Positions 1 to 33,382 of a stretch of 64,000 bases of DNA are shown here, piece after piece. Numbering within the stretch: the first letter of the stretch is position 1; every line of letters starts with the position of its first letter. This stretch comes from Desulfovibrio sp. (GTDB taxonomy: Bacteria; Desulfobacterota; Desulfovibrionia; Desulfovibrionales; Desulfovibrionaceae): contig JAISKZ010000010.1 in the NCBI GenBank assembly GCA_031260725.1, positions 7,012 to 71,011 of the forward strand, given 5' to 3'. The notes under the pieces are model-generated. The model ran no database searches, had not been told where the DNA came from, and was given only the letters and a program-made list of their open reading frames with translations. The position numbers and the translations under genes are program-made.

Positions 1-2466
1 GTCACTCCGGAAGAATTCGGCGAGATTGTTGTGCGCAACGGGCCGGACAGCGCCATGTTGCGCCTGAAGGACATCGCCGAAATTTCACTCGGCGGCAAGG
101 ATTACAGCGTGCTTTCGGAATACAACGGCAAAGCCGCGCGAGGGGCGGCCGTATTTCTTCTGCCCGGCGCCAACGCCATATCCACCGGCGACAGGGTGAA
201 GGCGAGGATGGCGGAAATAGCCCACGGCTTTCCGGAAGGCGTGGACTACACCATCGCGGTGGACACCAATGAATTTGTCTTAGAATCCATCAAGGAAGTG
301 ATCCACACTCTTGTGGAAGCCATGATTCTGGTTTTTATCGTTGTCTTTGTCTTTTTGCAGAACTGGCGGGCCACGCTCATCCCCTGCATTGCCGTTCCCG
401 TATCCGTCATCGGTACCTTCGCGGGCCTGTATGCGCTCGGCTTCACCATCAACACGCTGACGCTCTTCGGTCTGGTGCTTGCCATCGGCATTGTGGTGGA
501 CGACGCCATTGTGGTGCTGGAAAACGTGGAGCGCATCATGCGCACAGAGCATCTGCCGCCCAAGGAGGCTACAGCCAAAGCCATGAACGAGGTCACGGGG
601 CCGGTCATCGCCATTGTGCTCGTGCTGTGCGCGGTCTTTATTCCTGTTTCCTTCATGGGCGGTCTGGCCGGGCAGATGTACAAACAGTTCGCCATCACCA
701 TTTCCGTTTCCGTGATGCTGTCGGGCGTTGTGGCACTCACGCTCACGCCGGCGCTCTGCGCACTGCTGCTCAAACCGCACTCCCACGACCACACGCCCGC
801 GGCTTTTTTTGTGCGTTTCAACTATCTCTTCACCAGCATCACCCACAGTTATGTGCGTATGGTGCGCTTTATCAAAAATTCCGGCCTGCGCGCCATTCTG
901 CTTTTCGGACTCATGCTTGTCGCCATTGTATGGCTTTTCAGGGTGGTGCCCGGCGGTCTGGTGCCAAACGAAGATCAGGGCTATTTACTGGGCATGGCCG
1001 TGCTCTCTGACGGGGCATCCCAGCACCGCACCCACAACATCACCAGACAGATCGCGGATTTTGTGCTGAAAGACCCCTCGGCAAAAATCATCATGACGAT
1101 CAACGGCATAGATATCACATCCTTCTCCACCAAGAGCAACTACGGCACGTTTTTCGTGAATATGAAGCCGTGGAATGAACGCAGGGGGGCCAACATGTCG
1201 GCGCAGGACATGGCGAGAAAGGTGATGGGCCAGACCATGGCCCAGCCTGAAGCCGTTGTTCTGGGCTTTACGCCGCCGCCCATCAGCGGCATGAGTACCA
1301 CAGGCGGTTTTGACGGCTATATCCAGATGCGCGGCGACAGCACCATTCACGACATGGAAAATATGGCTAACCGTGTCACGCAGGAAGCTTTGTCTGTTGT
1401 AGGAGATGGAACGAACGCGCGAAAAAAATACCCGGCCGTCGGCAACGTGCAAAACCTCTTTTCCACGGGTGCGCCGCAGTTGTATGCCGACCTTGACCGC
1501 GAGCGCTGCCGCGACATGGGAGTGAGCGTAACGGATGTGTTCACGGCCATGAGCGGCACCTTCGGCTCATTCTACGTCAATGACTTCAACTACCTCGGCA
1601 GAACGTATCAGGTGCGTTTGCAGTCTGACGCGGCCTACCGCATTTTGCCGGAATCAATCAACGACGTGTACGTGCACAACACAAACGGCGACATGATACC
1701 ACTTTCCGCCCTGATGACGCTGGAACGTCGCACCGCACCGCAGACCATGGAACGGTACAACGTTTATCCGGCCGCGCATTTTCTGGGCAATCCCGCGCCG
1801 GGCTATTCCTCCGGCCAGGCGCTTGAGGCCATGGAACAGGCCGCCGCCGCCGTGATGACCTCTGACTACAGTTTGGGATGGGTCGGCTCGGCCCTGCAGG
1901 AAAAGCTGGCCAGTGCGGATACCACCGTGATTTTTATACTGGCGCTGGTGATGGTTTTTCTGATTCTGGCCGCCCAGTACGAAAGCTGGTCTTTGCCGCT
2001 GGCCGTGCTCACGGCCGTGCCTTTCGGCGTTTTCGGCGCGCTGGCCGCCACATGGCTGCGGGATCTCTCAAACGACGTTTATTTCCAGGTGGCCCTTGTC
2101 ACCCTGATTGGCCTTGCCGCCAAAAACGCCATCCTGATTGTGGAATTCGCCGTGGAAGCATGGCGTAGCGGCCGTTCGCTGGACACGGCGGCCATGCATG
2201 CCTCGCGGCTGCGCTTCAGGCCCATTATCATGACGTCGCTGGCTTTTATTCTCGGCTGTGTGCCGCTTGCCATAAGCACCGGCGCGGGCGCCAACAGCCG
2301 GCACGCCATCGGCACAGCCGTCATTGGCGGCATGCTGGCGGCAACGTGCATAGCCACCCTCTTTGTGCCGTATTTTTTCAAAAGCATTATGCTGCTTTCA
2401 CTCAAACTCCAAGGCAAGAAAGACCCCCATGAAGGTCAGGCGGCCGTTGACGAGGAGGATATATGA
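1..2466 (+). CDS. RND efflux transporter permease subunit (AcrB/MexF-like, HAE1), 5'-truncated by the window edge
   Basis: Frame open from base 1 (VTPEEFGEIVVR...). Motifs LAIGIVVDDAIVVLENVER, GLAAKNAILIVEFA and RFRPIIMTSLAFILG are typical of RND permeases. Confidence 0.95.
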   Translation, partial: VTPEEFGEIVVRNGPDSAMLRLKDIAEISLGGKDYSVLSEYNGKAARGAAVFLLPGANAISTGDRVKARMAEIAHGFPEGVDYTIAVDTNEFVLESIKEVIHTLVEAMILVFIVVFVFLQNWRATLIPCIAVPVSVIGTFAGLYALGFTINTLTLFGLVLAIGIVVDDAIVVLENVERIMRTEHLPPKEATAKAMNEVTGPVIAIVLVLCAVFIPVSFMGGLAGQMYKQFAITISVSVMLSGVVALTLTPALCALLLKPHSHDHTPAAFFVRFNYLFTSITHSYVRMVRFIKNSGLRAILLFGLMLVAIVWLFRVVPGGLVPNEDQGYLLGMAVLSDGASQHRTHNITRQIADFVLKDPSAKIIMTINGIDITSFSTKSNYGTFFVNMKPWNERRGANMSAQDMARKVMGQTMAQPEAVVLGFTPPPISGMSTTGGFDGYIQMRGDSTIHDMENMANRVTQEALSVVGDGTNARKKYPAVGNVQNLFSTGAPQLYADLDRERCRDMGVSVTDVFTAMSGTFGSFYVNDFNYLGRTYQVRLQSDAAYRILPESINDVYVHNTNGDMIPLSALMTLERRTAPQTMERYNVYPAAHFLGNPAPGYSSGQALEAMEQAAAAVMTSDYSLGWVGSALQEKLASADTTVIFILALVMVFLILAAQYESWSLPLAVLTAVPFGVFGALAATWLRDLSNDVYFQVALVTLIGLAAKNAILIVEFAVEAWRSGRSLDTAAMHASRLRFRPIIMTSLAFILGCVPLAISTGAGANSRHAIGTAVIGGMLAATCIATLFVPYFFKSIMLLSLKLQGKKDPHEGQAAVDEEDI

Positions 2467-3965
2467 TCTCCACTGTAAAAAACTGCCTCGCGCTGTGCCT
2501 CGCGCTGCTGCTCTCCGCCTGCTCCCTCGCCCCGAATTATGAACGCCCCGGCCAAGATATTCCTAAGGAATGGCGCAGGGTTGATCTGGGTTCAACGCCG
2601 CTTTACACAGACTGGTGGACGCGTTTTAACGACCCCGTGCTCACGTCCATGATTGCTGAAGCCCTGAGTACCAACCTGGATCTGGCGGAATCGCTGGCAA
2701 GGATTGATTCCGCCGCGGCTCAGGCCGGCGTTGCCACGTCACAACTCTTCCCCACGGTGAGCGGCAACGCTCAGGCGCTCGCGCAAAGCGCTTCGGAAAA
2801 AGGGCCAAATGCCGCCGCCTTTACCCCGCAGACCGGCATGTCGCGCTCCACCACCAATTATCAAGGTTCGCTCAATGCAGCCTGGGAGCTGGATTTCTGG
2901 GGAAAATACCGTGACAGCTACACGGCCCTTACCGACGTGCTCATGAACACCGTTGTCGGGCATGAAGCCTTGCTTCTTTCTGTGGCCGGTCAGACGGCCA
3001 GAGGCTATTTTACCATGCTCGCGCTTGACATGCAGCTTGCTACGGCCCGCCGCACCCTGAAAAGCCGTGAGGATTCCTTCGGCATCTACACAAGCCGCTA
3101 CAGGCAGGGTGACATCACCGAGCTTGACTGGCAGCGCGCTAGGGCGGAGGTGGAAACAGCCCGCTCCCAGATGCACGTCACCACAGTGGCGCTTGATCAG
3201 GCTGAAGCCGCGCTCGCTGTGCTGCTTGGCCGTTCTCCGCGCGATATTATGGAACGCTCCGTGGAGCGCGGCAAAACCATTCACGCGCTCCCTTCCCCGC
3301 CTGTTCTGCCGGAGGGGCTGCCCTCTGCACTTTTGGAACGCCGACCGGACGTGCGCGCAGCGGAATATATGATTATGGCCTATAACGCCGAAATCGGCGC
3401 GGCACGCGCGCAGTTTTTCCCCTCAATTTCCCTGACCGGTGTGCTCGGCACCCTCAGCGCGGCTGTAGGAAATCTGTTCACCGGACCTGCCGGCGTGTGG
3501 AGTTACGGCGTGACCGGCAGCCTGCCCCTTTTGGATTTCAGCCGCAACTGGTACACCGTGAAAGATGCGGAAGCCAGAAAAAAAGCTTCTGTCGCCGTGT
3601 ACCGCAAAACTGTACAGAAGGCGTTTCAGGATATCCGCACATCACTGACGTCACAGCGCGAAGCCGACGCCATTGTGCGCAGCATGCAGTTGCAGGTGCA
3701 AAGTCTGCGCCGGGCGGTGGAGATAGCCCGTCTGCAGTATGACAACGGCTACAGCGATTACCTGACGGTGCTGGACGCCGAACGCCAGCTCTTTGCGGCG
3801 GAAATGCAGCTTGCGACAGGACTGCGCGACCGGCTTGAGGCGGTCGTCAGCGTGTGCATGGCGCTTGGCGGCGGCTGGCAAGATCCGAAGGAAAGCCCTG
3901 CCTTCCCCGTGATCAATACAGAACGCCTGCTTGGCGATGTGACCGGAGGCGCACAACGGCCATGA
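2463..3965 (+). CDS. Efflux outer-membrane factor lipoprotein (OprM/NodT family)
   Basis: Lipobox LLLSAC-SLAP. Motifs WELDFWG, LLERRPDVRAAE, ARAQFFPSISLTG and ALGGGW. ATGA overlap with the RND gene. Confidence 0.93.
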   Translation: MISTVKNCLALCLALLLSACSLAPNYERPGQDIPKEWRRVDLGSTPLYTDWWTRFNDPVLTSMIAEALSTNLDLAESLARIDSAAAQAGVATSQLFPTVSGNAQALAQSASEKGPNAAAFTPQTGMSRSTTNYQGSLNAAWELDFWGKYRDSYTALTDVLMNTVVGHEALLLSVAGQTARGYFTMLALDMQLATARRTLKSREDSFGIYTSRYRQGDITELDWQRARAEVETARSQMHVTTVALDQAEAALAVLLGRSPRDIMERSVERGKTIHALPSPPVLPEGLPSALLERRPDVRAAEYMIMAYNAEIGAARAQFFPSISLTGVLGTLSAAVGNLFTGPAGVWSYGVTGSLPLLDFSRNWYTVKDAEARKKASVAVYRKTVQKAFQDIRTSLTSQREADAIVRSMQLQVQSLRRAVEIARLQYDNGYSDYLTVLDAERQLFAAEMQLATGLRDRLEAVVSVCMALGGGWQDPKESPAFPVINTERLLGDVTGGAQRP

Positions 3966-4597
3966 GCCCCCCCCAGTCGTCGGAGACTGCCAGCAGAGCA
4001 TTCCGGCTGCTCTGTCTTGTTCTGTGTCTGTTTGCCCAATGCCTGACGACAACCCTGCCGCTTTTGCCTGTGCCGGCAACGGCCGCGAGCGCGGCGCAAA
4101 CGCAGACGATGGCGCCCGGCAAAAAAAACGGGGGGGCCGCCCCCCAAAAAAATCTGCACGCACGGCCTTGGATTTTCGGCAAATCCCCTGACCGCGAAGC
4201 CGACATCTGGCGGCATGGGGAACGGGCGGAGCGCATTCGCGAACATGCCGTGCCCGACGCGAAGAGCATGCCCAAAGCGGTTAATACCGCGCCCGTCATT
4301 GACCGGGCACTCAAAAACGCAGAAAAAAAACAGGATGGCCTGAATGTGGACATACGCAATGAAAGTGCGTCCTGGCGTCCCCTCCTGCCGACGGAGAACG
4401 CGCGCCCGTATGAAAACCAGACAAGAACAGGCCGCCATATTGTAGGCGCATTCGCCGACATGAAGTCTGGCGACGATTTGAGCATACGCCTTGGGCCTGA
4501 GTTGATATTGAAAGATGAACAAAGCATTGAAAAGAGCGCGGGTAATCAGCCCGACTCCGCACTCGGCATGGGCATGCAGTTCAAGCTGGATTTTTAA
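3962..4597 (+). CDS. Hypothetical exported protein with C-terminal beta-signal-like end
   Basis: ATG 3962 overlaps the OMF stop (ATGA). Hydrophobic N-terminal stretch. Ends LGMGMQFKLDF. The ORF-track start at 3854 lies inside the upstream gene. Confidence 0.7.
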   Translation: MSPPQSSETASRAFRLLCLVLCLFAQCLTTTLPLLPVPATAASAAQTQTMAPGKKNGGAAPQKNLHARPWIFGKSPDREADIWRHGERAERIREHAVPDAKSMPKAVNTAPVIDRALKNAEKKQDGLNVDIRNESASWRPLLPTENARPYENQTRTGRHIVGAFADMKSGDDLSIRLGPELILKDEQSIEKSAGNQPDSALGMGMQFKLDF

Positions 4598-4604
4598 TGA
4601 TCTT

Positions 4605-8816
<4,212 letters not shown>

Positions 8817-13021: not shown

Positions 13022-13194
13022 GAGCACCTCAAATCAGGTAACGGTTGCGCCCCGGCAGCGCGGGAGAAAGCGCCGTTTGACGCCGACGGAAAATTTTAAA
13101 AAAGTCTGCGGGAACAATCAGCAATTAAAGCAGGGGAGCAAGAAAGCGCGATTCCCCAAGAAACGAATTTCCATAGACATACATTGAACCTATT

Positions 13195-13223
13195 ATAATA
13201 AACGAAATATTTATTTTTTGCAA
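13195..13223 (-). promoter_or_regulatory. Candidate sigma70 promoter for rpoBC (TTGCAA-N17-TATTAT)
   Basis: Minus strand -35 TTGCAA at 13223-13218, 17-nt AT-rich spacer, -10 TATTAT at 13200-13195. Lies downstream of the rplL terminator. Confidence 0.55.
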
Positions 13224-13238
13224 GGGCTTTCGTGTTGA

Positions 13239-13319
13239 GAGAGATTCACGTTCGCAATGATTTGACACTTGTAATTAGTTGTTTTTACTTGATAAAAATA
13301 TCACAAAGGTGAAACTCTC
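13239..13319. mobile_element. MITE-like element, copy A (81 bp)
   Basis: TIRs GAGAGATTCAC / GTGAAACTCTC (10/11 complementary). Perfect 8-bp direct repeat CGTGTTGA on both sides (13231-13238, 13320-13327). Homologous to 32500-32589. Confidence 0.8.
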
Positions 13320-13356
13320 CGTGTTGAAGTTTTTTGGCTGGCCGCTGCAGCGGCAG

Positions 13357-13396
13357 AAAAGTAAAAGCATGGCGAAACATTACGGTTTCGCCATGC
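13357..13396 (-). terminator. Intrinsic terminator downstream of rplL
   Basis: 12-bp perfect stem GCATGGCGAAAC / GTTTCGCCATGC (13367-13378, 13385-13396) followed on the minus strand by TTTTACTTTT. Confidence 0.8.
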
Positions 13397-13445: not shown

Positions 13446-13832
13446 TTACTTAACTTCGACGGTCGCGCCTGCGTCGGCAAGCTGTTTTCTCGCTTCTTCA
13501 GCTTCTTCCTTTGAGACCGCTTCTTTAATAGTTGAAGGAGCGCCGTCAACTTTTTCCTTTGCCTCCTTGAGGCCAAGGCTGGTCAAAGCGCGTACCGCTT
13601 TAATCACGTTAATTTTGTTGGCGCCGGTTTCTTTGAGGATCACATCGAATTCAGTTTTTTCTTCCTCTGCGACCGCGGCGTCAGCGCCGGCGGCGGGCGC
13701 CATTACCATTGCCGCGGCGGGCGCTACGGCAGATACGCCAAATTTTTCTTCCAACTCCTTGATGAACTCTGAAAGTTCGAGCACAGTCATATCAGAAATA
13801 AAGGCGACGACTTCTTCCTTGGTCACGGACAT
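13446..13832 (-). CDS. rplL: 50S ribosomal protein L7/L12
   Basis: [27 protein letters not shown] motifs. Confidence 0.99.
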
Positions 13833-31053: not shown

Positions 31054-32349
31054 CTATTTGCCCATAGCGTTCATAAAGTCTTTATTGGATTTTGTGCCTC
31101 GCATTTTGTCCAGAAAAAACTCCATGCTGTCAATGGATGACATGGGGGCCAGAATTTTGCGCAAAATCCAGACACGATTGAGCACATCCTCCGGCAGGAG
31201 CAGGTCTTCTTTGCGTGTGCCGGTGCGATTGATGTCAATGGAGGGGAACACACGTTTTTCAGAAAGATGACGATCCAGATAGATTTCCATATTGCCGGTA
31301 CCTTTGAATTCCTCAAAAATCACTTCGTCCATACGCGAACCGGTATCAATCAGCGCTGTCGCTATAATTGTCAGACTCCCGCCCTCTTCAATATTACGCG
31401 CCGCGCCGAAAAACCGTTTGGGTCGTTGCAGGGCATTTGTATCCAGACCGCCTGAGAGGACACGGCCAGACGAAGGTGTTACCGCGTTATAGGCGCGGCC
31501 GAGGCGGGTAATGGAGTCAAGCAGAATAACCACATCGCGCTTGCGCTCCACAAGGCGTTTTGCTTTTTCCAGCACCATTTCACAAACCTGCACGTGTCGC
31601 TGTGGTGGTTCGTCAAAAGTGGAGCTGATGACTTCCGCCTTTTTAACCGTACGCTCCATATCCGTGACTTCTTCAGGGCGCTCGTCAATAAGCAGTACAA
31701 TGAGGTAGACGTCAGGATTATTAGCGTTAATTGCGTTAGCAAGCGACTGGAGCAGAATGGTTTTGCCGGTTCGCGGCGGTGCCACAATCAGTCCGCGCTG
31801 ACCACAGCCGACGGGCGCCATGATGTCAATAACGCGGTTGGAGAGATTTTTATCGCCGTTTTCCATAATGAGCTGCTGGTCAGGATATATAGGCGTAAGA
31901 TTGTCAAAAAGGACAAGATTTTTTGCGTGTTCCGGCGGTTCAAAGCCGATTTCCGTGACTTTGAGCAGAGCAAAGTAGCGTTCACCTTCTTTGGGGGGGC
32001 GTATCTGGCCAGAAACAATGTCGCCTTTGCGCAAGGAAAAACGGCGTATCTGTGAAGGAGAAACATAAATATCGTCAGGCCCAGGCATATAGCTGCACAA
32101 CGGCGAACGCAGAAAACCGAAACCGTCGGGAAGAATTTCCAGAACGCCATCGCCGTAAATAGCGCCGTTTTGCGAAGCGCAGGTCGAGAGTAGGGCAAAA
32201 ATCAATTCCTGCTTACGCATGGAACTGGCGTTTTCAATCTCAAACTGTTCAGCGAGCTCCATCAGCTCTTGCATGCTGCGTGTTTTGAGATCTGTGAGAC
32301 TCATGACGCTGTCTGTCAAAATGGCTGGAGATGCTTTCTTTTTCCACAT
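31054..32349 (-). CDS. rho: Transcription termination factor Rho
   Basis: [25 protein letters not shown]; start set at ATG 32349 (uncertain). Confidence 0.99.
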
Positions 32350-32499
32350 AACTATCCAATTTTTAAATAATACGAAATAAACCGTCAGCAGAGCCACCAG
32401 GCACAGGGGGTATTGAGATAGAATAGTAAAGGAACAAAAATGGCGTGTGCAGAAGCGATTACCGTATCTTTTTCCTTATGGCAAGAAAAATCTGTGCAG

Positions 32500-32589
32500 A
32501 AGAGATTCACTTTTTCAATGAGTTGATGCCGGTAATCCATTGTTCTTGTTTAGCCAACACATCAAAATCATCACAAAGGTGAAACGCTC
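32500..32589. mobile_element. MITE-like element, copy B (90 bp)
   Basis: Ends AAGAGATTCAC / GTGAAACGCTC. Perfect 8-bp direct repeat CTGTGCAG on both sides (32492-32499, 32590-32597). Homologous to 13239-13319. Confidence 0.8.
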
Positions 32590-32631
32590 CTGTGCAGAAC
32601 TGCTAATACAGAATAAAAGAATGGCATTTTG

Positions 32632-33180
32632 TCAGACAGACTGATCGGCAGCGCTGTCACCGTCTGTCAGCGGCCATGCTTTTTGACGACAGAATTGGAC
32701 GTAAATTTCAAAGAGTTCTGATCGTAGTGCATCTTCAGTGGTATTGAGCACTTCAGCCAGTTCACCTGTAACGAGACTCATGGCCTGTTCTTGCAGTCGG
32801 CGTTCACCGAAGGAGAGTTCTTTCGTTTTTCCAATCAGCAGCAGTTCTCTCAGAACCTCGGTAACCACCAGAAGATCAGGGCTTTTCAGACGATCGGAAT
32901 ATTCACGGAACCGACGGTTCCAATTCTGTCCCGTATACACAATTTTATCCGTATCATTGCGCAGACTGTCAAGCATGCCGATCGCTCTTTGAGATGGCAC
33001 CAGAGGGCGCAGGCCGACTTTGAGCGCATTGTCCACAGGCACCATCAGGGTAATGTTGTTCGCACGGATGCGGACTATGTAAAATGAACACGGAACGCCA
33101 TTGATATGCTGGCTGTCGATGCGTTCTATTTTACCCACGCCCTGTGCTGGATAAACTACAAGTTCGTTCGGTGTGAACAT
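32632..33180 (-). CDS. CarD/CdnL family transcription factor
   Basis: MFTPNELVVYPAQGVGKIE, NWNRRFRE, LSFGERRL. Confidence 0.92.
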   Translation of the reverse strand: MFTPNELVVYPAQGVGKIERIDSQHINGVPCSFYIVRIRANNITLMVPVDNALKVGLRPLVPSQRAIGMLDSLRNDTDKIVYTGQNWNRRFREYSDRLKSPDLLVVTEVLRELLLIGKTKELSFGERRLQEQAMSLVTGELAEVLNTTEDALRSELFEIYVQFCRQKAWPLTDGDSAADQSV

Positions 33181-33382
33181 GATTTTACCACGCGCGCTAT
33201 ACTTGCTGATTACTGAGTTGGCGCGATTATAAAGACATTTATAATCCATGAATTATACAGAACAAATTAGAAGAAAATCAACTGTACAACAAATATTACG
33301 CCATTTGCGGGTAACAGTCCAGATAAAAAATAAAAAAATTTATGTATGCTGGGGTATTGATACCTTAACCTAATACAGGTTA

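Follow-up and report, generated by a model that had tools for sequence, protein, structure and literature searches.

Bacterial MITEs include the Correia elements of Neisseria, RUP of Streptococcus pneumoniae and MITEAba12 of Acinetobacter. The target duplication is TA in Correia and RUP, and 9 bp long in MITEAba12. REP and BIME repeats are 20–40-bp imperfect palindromes that are often clustered, make no target duplications and are associated with RAYTs. Among insertion sequences (ISs) that recognise a short signal, IS900-type elements insert between the ribosome-binding site and the start codon, while IS30 and IS911 insert next to end-like sequences. Promoter-targeted elements are found in eukaryotes, where Ty3 inserts at Pol III start sites, Tf1 at Pol II promoters and mPing near 5′ ends. 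We know of no MITE with a fixed 14–16-bp spacing to a −35 hexamer. IS1397, ISKpn1 and others target REP palindromes (PMC1525189).

The element described here was found in a 64-kb stretch of Desulfovibrio DNA (64,000 nucleotides, referred to below as the window). It resembles the known MITEs in being short (~80–160 bp) and non-coding, with terminal inverted repeats (TIRs), a duplication of fixed length and many intergenic copies that often lie by promoters, and in its presumed mobilisation in trans. The differences from Correia, RUP and MITEAba12 lie in its ends, which read GAGAG(A/T)TTCAC, and in its 8-bp duplication of varied sequence; compared with known MITEs it also carries no promoter of its own and lands beside an existing one. 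Unlike REP and BIME repeats, its units are 80–90 bp long, have duplications and occur as a single copy per site. With the signal-targeted ISs it shares a fixed distance and orientation to a short recurring genomic signal, and the resemblance of its subterminal TTGCAA/TTGTGA to the TTGACA beside the target recalls targeting by end mimicry. The signal here, however, is a −35-like hexamer, and the IS900 type has neither TIRs nor duplications. Ty3, Tf1 and mPing likewise integrate immediately upstream of promoters and spare coding sequence, but they do so with other enzymes, in other hosts and by transcription-factor tethering, and no factor is implicated for the present element.

The first copy, copy A, lies in the spacer between rplL and rpoB, and its features are as follows.

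13231–13238: left target-site duplication of copy A, CGTGTTGA, a perfect repeat of 13320–13327
13239–13319, plus strand: MITE copy A, 81 bp, 32% G+C, non-coding (nhmmer E=3.5e-18)
13239–13263, plus strand: left inverted repeat of copy A, with the core GAGAGATTCAC at 13239–13249, imperfect to ~25 bp
13295–13319, minus strand: right inverted repeat of copy A, with the core GTGAAACTCTC at 13309–13319
13320–13327: right target-site duplication of copy A, CGTGTTGA, a perfect 8-bp repeat
13446–13832, minus strand: rplL
13367–13396, minus strand: intrinsic terminator/attenuator hairpin of rplL, then a T-run, kept in relatives including L020
13195–13223, minus strand: predicted rpoB promoter, TTGCAA-N17-TATTAT, sigma-70-like, from a consensus scan

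The order on the plus strand across 13231–13327 is thus CGTGTTGA, then GAGAGATTCAC...GTGAAACTCTC, then CGTGTTGA. The two ends of copy A match at 19 of 28 positions, and its G+C content compares with 52% for the window. An earlier note on this DNA had described an AT-rich element of 81 bp with TIRs, a perfect 8-bp duplication and no coding capacity, and all of this was verified. Its placement of the element between the rplL terminator and the rpoB promoter is borne out by the coordinates of the genes, the hairpin and the predicted promoter: rpoB starts at 13022, and copy A sits within the minus-strand operon between terminator and promoter. The distance of 15 bp that the note gave from the left TIR to the putative −35 is exact, counted from the hexamer at 13218–13223. 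This distance is the most informative point of that note because it recurs in the family. If the predicted promoter is used, the rpoB leader would be ~165 nt long (13028–13195), and it is 92% conserved across the clade. A terminator-like site at 13323–13302 in the right end of copy A was rejected as functional, as it is weak and broken in L018, and direct reading of the sequence gave no readable outward hybrid promoter from the element end.

The second copy, copy B, lies between carD and rho.

32492–32499: left target-site duplication of copy B, CTGTGCAG
32500–32589, plus strand: MITE copy B, 90 bp, between carD and rho (nhmmer E=6.8e-19)
32590–32597: right target-site duplication of copy B, CTGTGCAG
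32479–32484, minus strand: −35-like hexamer TTGCCA upstream of rho, read from the sequence, of putative rho promoter function
32632–33249, minus strand: carD
31054–32304, minus strand: rho

Copy B starts with AAGAGATTCAC and ends with GTGAAACGCTC, 42 bp past the carD stop and 193 bp ahead of the rho start, and the hexamer TTGCCA is again 15 bp from its left end. The duplication would be 10 bp long if the first AA of the element were included. Copies A and B align over their full length with a single 9-bp gap, which reproduces the alignment of the earlier note (27/41 ungapped identities after the left repeat, a common ATCACAAAGGTGAAAC and a 9-bp difference in length). Relatives X7, X8 and X9 also have copy B. 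In two related strains, X3 and X10, 32427 is joined directly to 32575, and this 147-bp deletion (32428–32574) takes 72 bp of the spacer upstream of rho together with 75 bp from the left side of copy B, whose last 15 bp remain. It also takes the hexamer at 32479–32484, the putative rho −35, which means that the strain has another rho promoter or that the hexamer is non-essential. Use of the predicted promoter would give a rho leader of 140–175 nt (32305–32478); neither the rpoB nor the rho leader matched an Rfam family.

The window belongs to the termite-gut ‘Ca. Desulfovibrio trichonymphae’ clade: its RplL is 90–97% identical to that of named members, and the runs that contain the sequence are termite-gut samples. 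The TIR consensus occurs in the 64-kb window only at the four ends of copies A and B. When a TIR with at most one mismatch in 11 and an abutting perfect 8-bp direct repeat was modelled in Markov simulations, the expected chance occurrence was 0.003 per 64 kb. A scan of species-representative genomes with both ends gave 12 matches, four of which are copies in the MAG JAITNF01 (Desulfovibrio sp. Po218_bin116), a separate termite-gut lineage. The other eight were set aside as chance, being the number expected from the pattern length and having only partial nhmmer scores. Several more flanks came from runs of the window clade. The JAITNF01 copies are 79–82 bp long, intergenic and alignable end to end with A and B, and one of them, L003, has a perfect 8-bp duplication, GATATTTT, the third perfect one in the family. 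All known copies are intergenic, with der, dnaK and guaB among the JAITNF01 neighbours.

Contig depth indicates that the element is present many times. In contigs of the JAITNF01 run the depth is 80–108 on the element versus 8 on the flanks, giving ~10–13 copies. In six runs of the window clade the depth on copies A and B is raised 3–7x, with several different flanks, and two copies lie on a single 11-kb contig. The copy number in the clade genomes is at least about 10 per genome. Reads on half-elements of 48–52 nt were less sensitive and added no new flanks, and neither an nhmmer profile nor fuzzy end searches found further copies or solo ends in the window or loci. A repeat search found no other repeat family.

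The ends of the element are better conserved than its interior, at 89–96% versus 75% across lineages. The 11-bp core of the TIR matches at 10/11 positions, the repeats reach 17–19/28 in six independent copies and ATCACAAAGGTGAAAC in the right repeat is common to all copies. A subterminal hexamer lies 13 bp from each terminus, TTGCAA or TTGCAG at the left end and TTGTGA at the right end. All copies retain the A/T difference between the two ends at position 6, so it is the sequence and not the pairing that is conserved, which points to recognition by a protein over RNA pairing. The perfect duplications differ in sequence at three independent loci (CGTGTTGA at A, CTGTGCAG at B and GATATTTT at L003), while four of seven duplications at other copies match at only 4–5/8 positions. 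The earlier note had called the element MITE-like, and with non-coding copies well below the ~300 bp that bounds MITEs, and with TIRs and 8-bp duplications, dispersed in two Desulfovibrio lineages, we hold its identification as a MITE with high confidence. The family appears to be previously undescribed in the literature searched, and the two ‘Ca. D. trichonymphae’ genome papers (including PMC5322295) make no mention of MITEs.

A new finding is the position of the copies relative to promoter-like sequence. Among the 11 copies with known flanks, 10 have one end 14–16 bp from an outward-facing TTGACA-like hexamer. For five of the 11, the flanks come solely from 30-nt contig overhangs, each of them recovered from 2–4 runs. 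The hexamers, and their distance from the left end in the clade or the right end in JAITNF01, are listed below.

Clade copy A: TTGCAA, 15 bp from the left end
Clade copy B: TTGCCA, 15 bp from the left end
Clade copy C: TTGACA, 15/16 bp from the left end
Clade copy D: TTGACA, 14 bp from the left end
Clade copy E: TTGACA, 14 bp from the left end
Clade copy F: none
Clade copy G: TTTACG, 15 bp from the left end
JAITNF01, four copies: TTGTCC at 15 bp, TTGACG at 14 bp, TTGACA at 16 bp and TTGACA at 15 bp from the right end

To obtain a null distribution for the clade set that allows for the choice of spacing, we drew random sites 20,000 times from the window's own intergenic DNA and permitted any spacing. 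The clade set has a hexamer score of 34/42 versus a null maximum of 30 in these draws, and the JAITNF01 set scores 21/24 versus a null maximum of 20 in 20,000 draws, with nothing on the opposite flanks. Measured on 11 copies in all, the bias is significant in both of these independent sets (P<5e-5 and P<1e-4) and very probably real. Two of the JAITNF01 hexamers are followed by good −10 boxes: the TTGACG at 14 bp by N17 and TATAAA, and the TTGACA at 15 bp, which lies 77 bp upstream of guaB, by N16 and TATACT. A right-flank consensus of four contigs from the JAITNF01 run also has TTGACG at 14 bp. The hexamers are putative parts of active promoters. The TTGTCC of L003 lies within a hairpin with a perfect 8-bp stem (TTGTCCTG-N9-CAGGACAA, L003:1340-1383) just upstream of der; it is without a good −10 and may not be a promoter.

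From these spacings the target looks like N8, which is duplicated, followed by N6–8 and then cTTGACA. The hexamer lies by the left end in 6/6 clade copies that have one, and by the right end in 4/4 JAITNF01 copies (L003, L004, L011 and L012). A simple targeting model does not predict such an orientation, uniform within lineages and opposite between them.

The clade copies are old. Two ‘Ca. D. trichonymphae’ assemblies and all related runs share copy A at one and the same site, and its duplication CGTGTTGA is conserved in the ‘Ca. D. trichonymphae’ loci L017–L019. Between lineages the element is 85–86% identical versus 92–93% for the flanking promoter and terminator DNA, and this faster change, together with the partial deletion of copy B, identifies the copies as fixed, decaying fossils and not as conserved functional modules. 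Copy A is therefore a real and old copy that is fixed and decaying across the clade. The genome of ‘Ca. D. trichonymphae’ is itself reduced and deletion-prone, with many pseudogenes and with pseudogenised transposases (PMC5322295). The JAITNF01 copies are ~90–95% alike and form a young family.

Two relatives have the same loci free of the element. L020, which is more distant (RplL 87%), has a 305-bp rplL–rpoB spacer without it and without an nhmmer match, and keeps the terminator and the −35/−10 region of rpoB. L029, which is syntenic around rho, is without copy B and keeps CTTGCCA and the DNA downstream. As these element-free relatives retain the promoter regions, the promoters are older than the insertions. 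Just upstream of the −35, both have diverged too far for an exact empty site to be recognised. The earlier note had staked its reading on an empty-site form in relatives or on further duplication-flanked copies in the genome; the close relatives all have copy A and gave no exact empty site, while further copies flanked by target duplications do exist. The RplL homologues P0046 and P0021 and the Rho homologue P0126 were set aside because their loci are non-syntenic or truncated.

The copies contain no gene for their own movement, and a transposase acting in trans would have mobilised them. The window, the loci, the JGI metagenomes, IMG/VR and PLSDB yielded no autonomous element, transposase or solo end with these termini. 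The right end gave three matches in the JGI metagenomes, all of them chance and none with a left end; a scan of IMG/VR gave one chance match, and blastn of the JAITNF01 consensus against PLSDB gave nothing below E=2. Pfam identified no transposase among ten window proteins. A 324-aa open reading frame at 3758–4732 on the minus strand also has no Pfam match; it overlaps both the end of an outer-membrane-factor gene (2463–3965, plus strand) and the 3′ end of rpoC (4605–8816, minus strand) and is probably not a gene. The search for a full-length IS with the same TIRs, which the earlier note had suggested, thus found none, and the sole hint is a 1210-bp contig of the JAITNF01 run X16. This contig has the left-terminal 41 bp of the JAITNF01 element with one mismatch (L011:4869-4909), and in the orientation of the element continues past the junction between AAATACAA and TCTGTATACGCTGTCCGTGACCTGCCGGTA into unrelated G+C-rich sequence that ends 115 nt on. 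It could represent the border of a complete parent IS, a longer relative or a copy that was cut short.

The earlier note had also seen a likeness to the IS256 family. Members of that family duplicate 8–9 bp of the target, have termini that start with G(A/G)G and carry imperfect repeats of 20–40 bp, while 8-bp duplications are also made by ISL3, IS6, IS1595 and ISH6. The 8-bp duplication and the termini, GAGAG or AAGAG, fit the IS256 definition weakly and are shared by other families. The likeness consists of the GAG ends and the 8-bp duplication only, and no member with matching ends or a Transposase_mut (PF00872) gene was found or compared.

The observations as a whole are probably best explained by a MITE family whose target lies 6–8 bp upstream of a cTTGACA-like hexamer and whose copies in this clade are old. 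Each copy would consist of the two termini of a DDE-type insertion sequence without its transposase gene. A transposase provided in trans would bind the ~25-bp imperfect repeats, recognising GAGAG(A/T)TTCAC and, at positions 14–19, TTG(C/T)(A/G)(A/G), and would make a staggered 8-bp cut in the target, the repair of which would yield the 8-bp duplication. The target would be an 8-bp site 6–8 bp upstream of the cTTGACA-like hexamer, which in intergenic DNA would usually be a sigma-70 −35 box, and such a non-random target site would leave one end of the element 14–16 bp upstream of the −35 after insertion. Copy A would in this way have landed with the rplL terminator on one side and an rpoB promoter that was already there on the other, and copy B between carD and an equally older promoter-like site of rho. 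The element does not supply these promoters; it pushes all DNA upstream of about −43 some 90 bp away. Copy A neither makes nor breaks the predicted rpoB promoter, but parts it by ~89 bp from the rplL terminator side and takes the place of the DNA beyond about −43, and the same is true of copy B and the putative rho promoter.

The similarity of the subterminal TTGCAA/TTGCAG/TTGTGA to the hexamer beside the target suggests that the transposase may read an end-like hexamer there. That it selects its target via the promoter, either by reading cTTGACA with its end-binding domain or by docking on promoter-bound RNA polymerase, is a tentative proposal that we think rather doubtful; the element would in that case integrate around −43 to −50.

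Whether the bias arises at insertion or by later filtering is the point on which the explanations differ, and on balance we favour insertion. An ordinary MITE without target preference would be found beside promoters if only copies at that place and in that orientation persisted, or if they were favoured because the element end modulates the promoter in place of the UP-element or activator region. The copies in the reduced-genome clade are indeed old and have been filtered by long deletional decay, and an orientation that is uniform within lineages and opposite between them is closer to lineage-specific filtering than to a fixed insertion geometry. Survivorship, however, predicts neither a spacing precise to ~1 bp nor duplications that lie unbroken directly at the element ends, and the young JAITNF01 family has the same 14–16-bp spacing. 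Selection is also expected to be weak in a pseudogene-rich symbiont (PMC5322295), and we regard an element without target preference as unlikely.

A host repeat with a cis-regulatory or structural role, for example a module that binds a regulator or a nucleoid protein, or else an RNA element, would account for the common orientation of copies A and B upstream of genes of the transcription machinery (rpoB and rho) and for the long hairpin that the transcribed strand can form via the repeats (z = −3.0 and −2.2). Such a repeat is not expected to have flanking 8-bp duplications that differ from locus to locus, to adjoin genes as unrelated as der, dnaK and guaB, to change faster than its flanks or to have lost part of a copy in two strains. 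The stem keeps its mismatch, a change in copy B is uncompensated and Rfam 15 matched only tRNAs at gathering score in the window, with a best E=0.7 on the copy A and B loci, making a host repeat highly improbable. The pseudogenised transposases and deletion-prone genome of ‘Ca. D. trichonymphae’ (PMC5322295) would also suit copies that are each an independent internal-deletion remnant of a full-length IS, with no short family that spreads, and the X16 contig, with its 41 bp of left end and then unrelated G+C-rich sequence, could be read in this way. All copies in both lineages nevertheless have the same 80–90-bp architecture and an alignable interior, which independent deletions would not yield, and we consider this origin extremely improbable.

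Taken as a plain MITE, the element adds a routine repeat family to those that need masking and annotation in symbiont genomes, and it is a marker older than the divergence of the ‘Ca. D. trichonymphae’ lineages. It is the positional rule that matters and lifts it above a routine MITE. If the insertion preference is true, the family would be a simple and testable example of bacterial transposable elements drawn to the DNA upstream of promoters, and its persistence in gene-dense genomes would be explained, since coding sequence would never be struck. Systematic rewiring of UP-element and activator inputs would be predicted at essential genes, rpoB and rho among them, and the family would be a possible source of a compact promoter-proximal integration tool. 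If the transposase does read promoters, the element would be a bacterial counterpart of the promoter-tethered integration of Ty3 and Tf1, and a natural device for uncoupling promoters from their upstream regulatory DNA.
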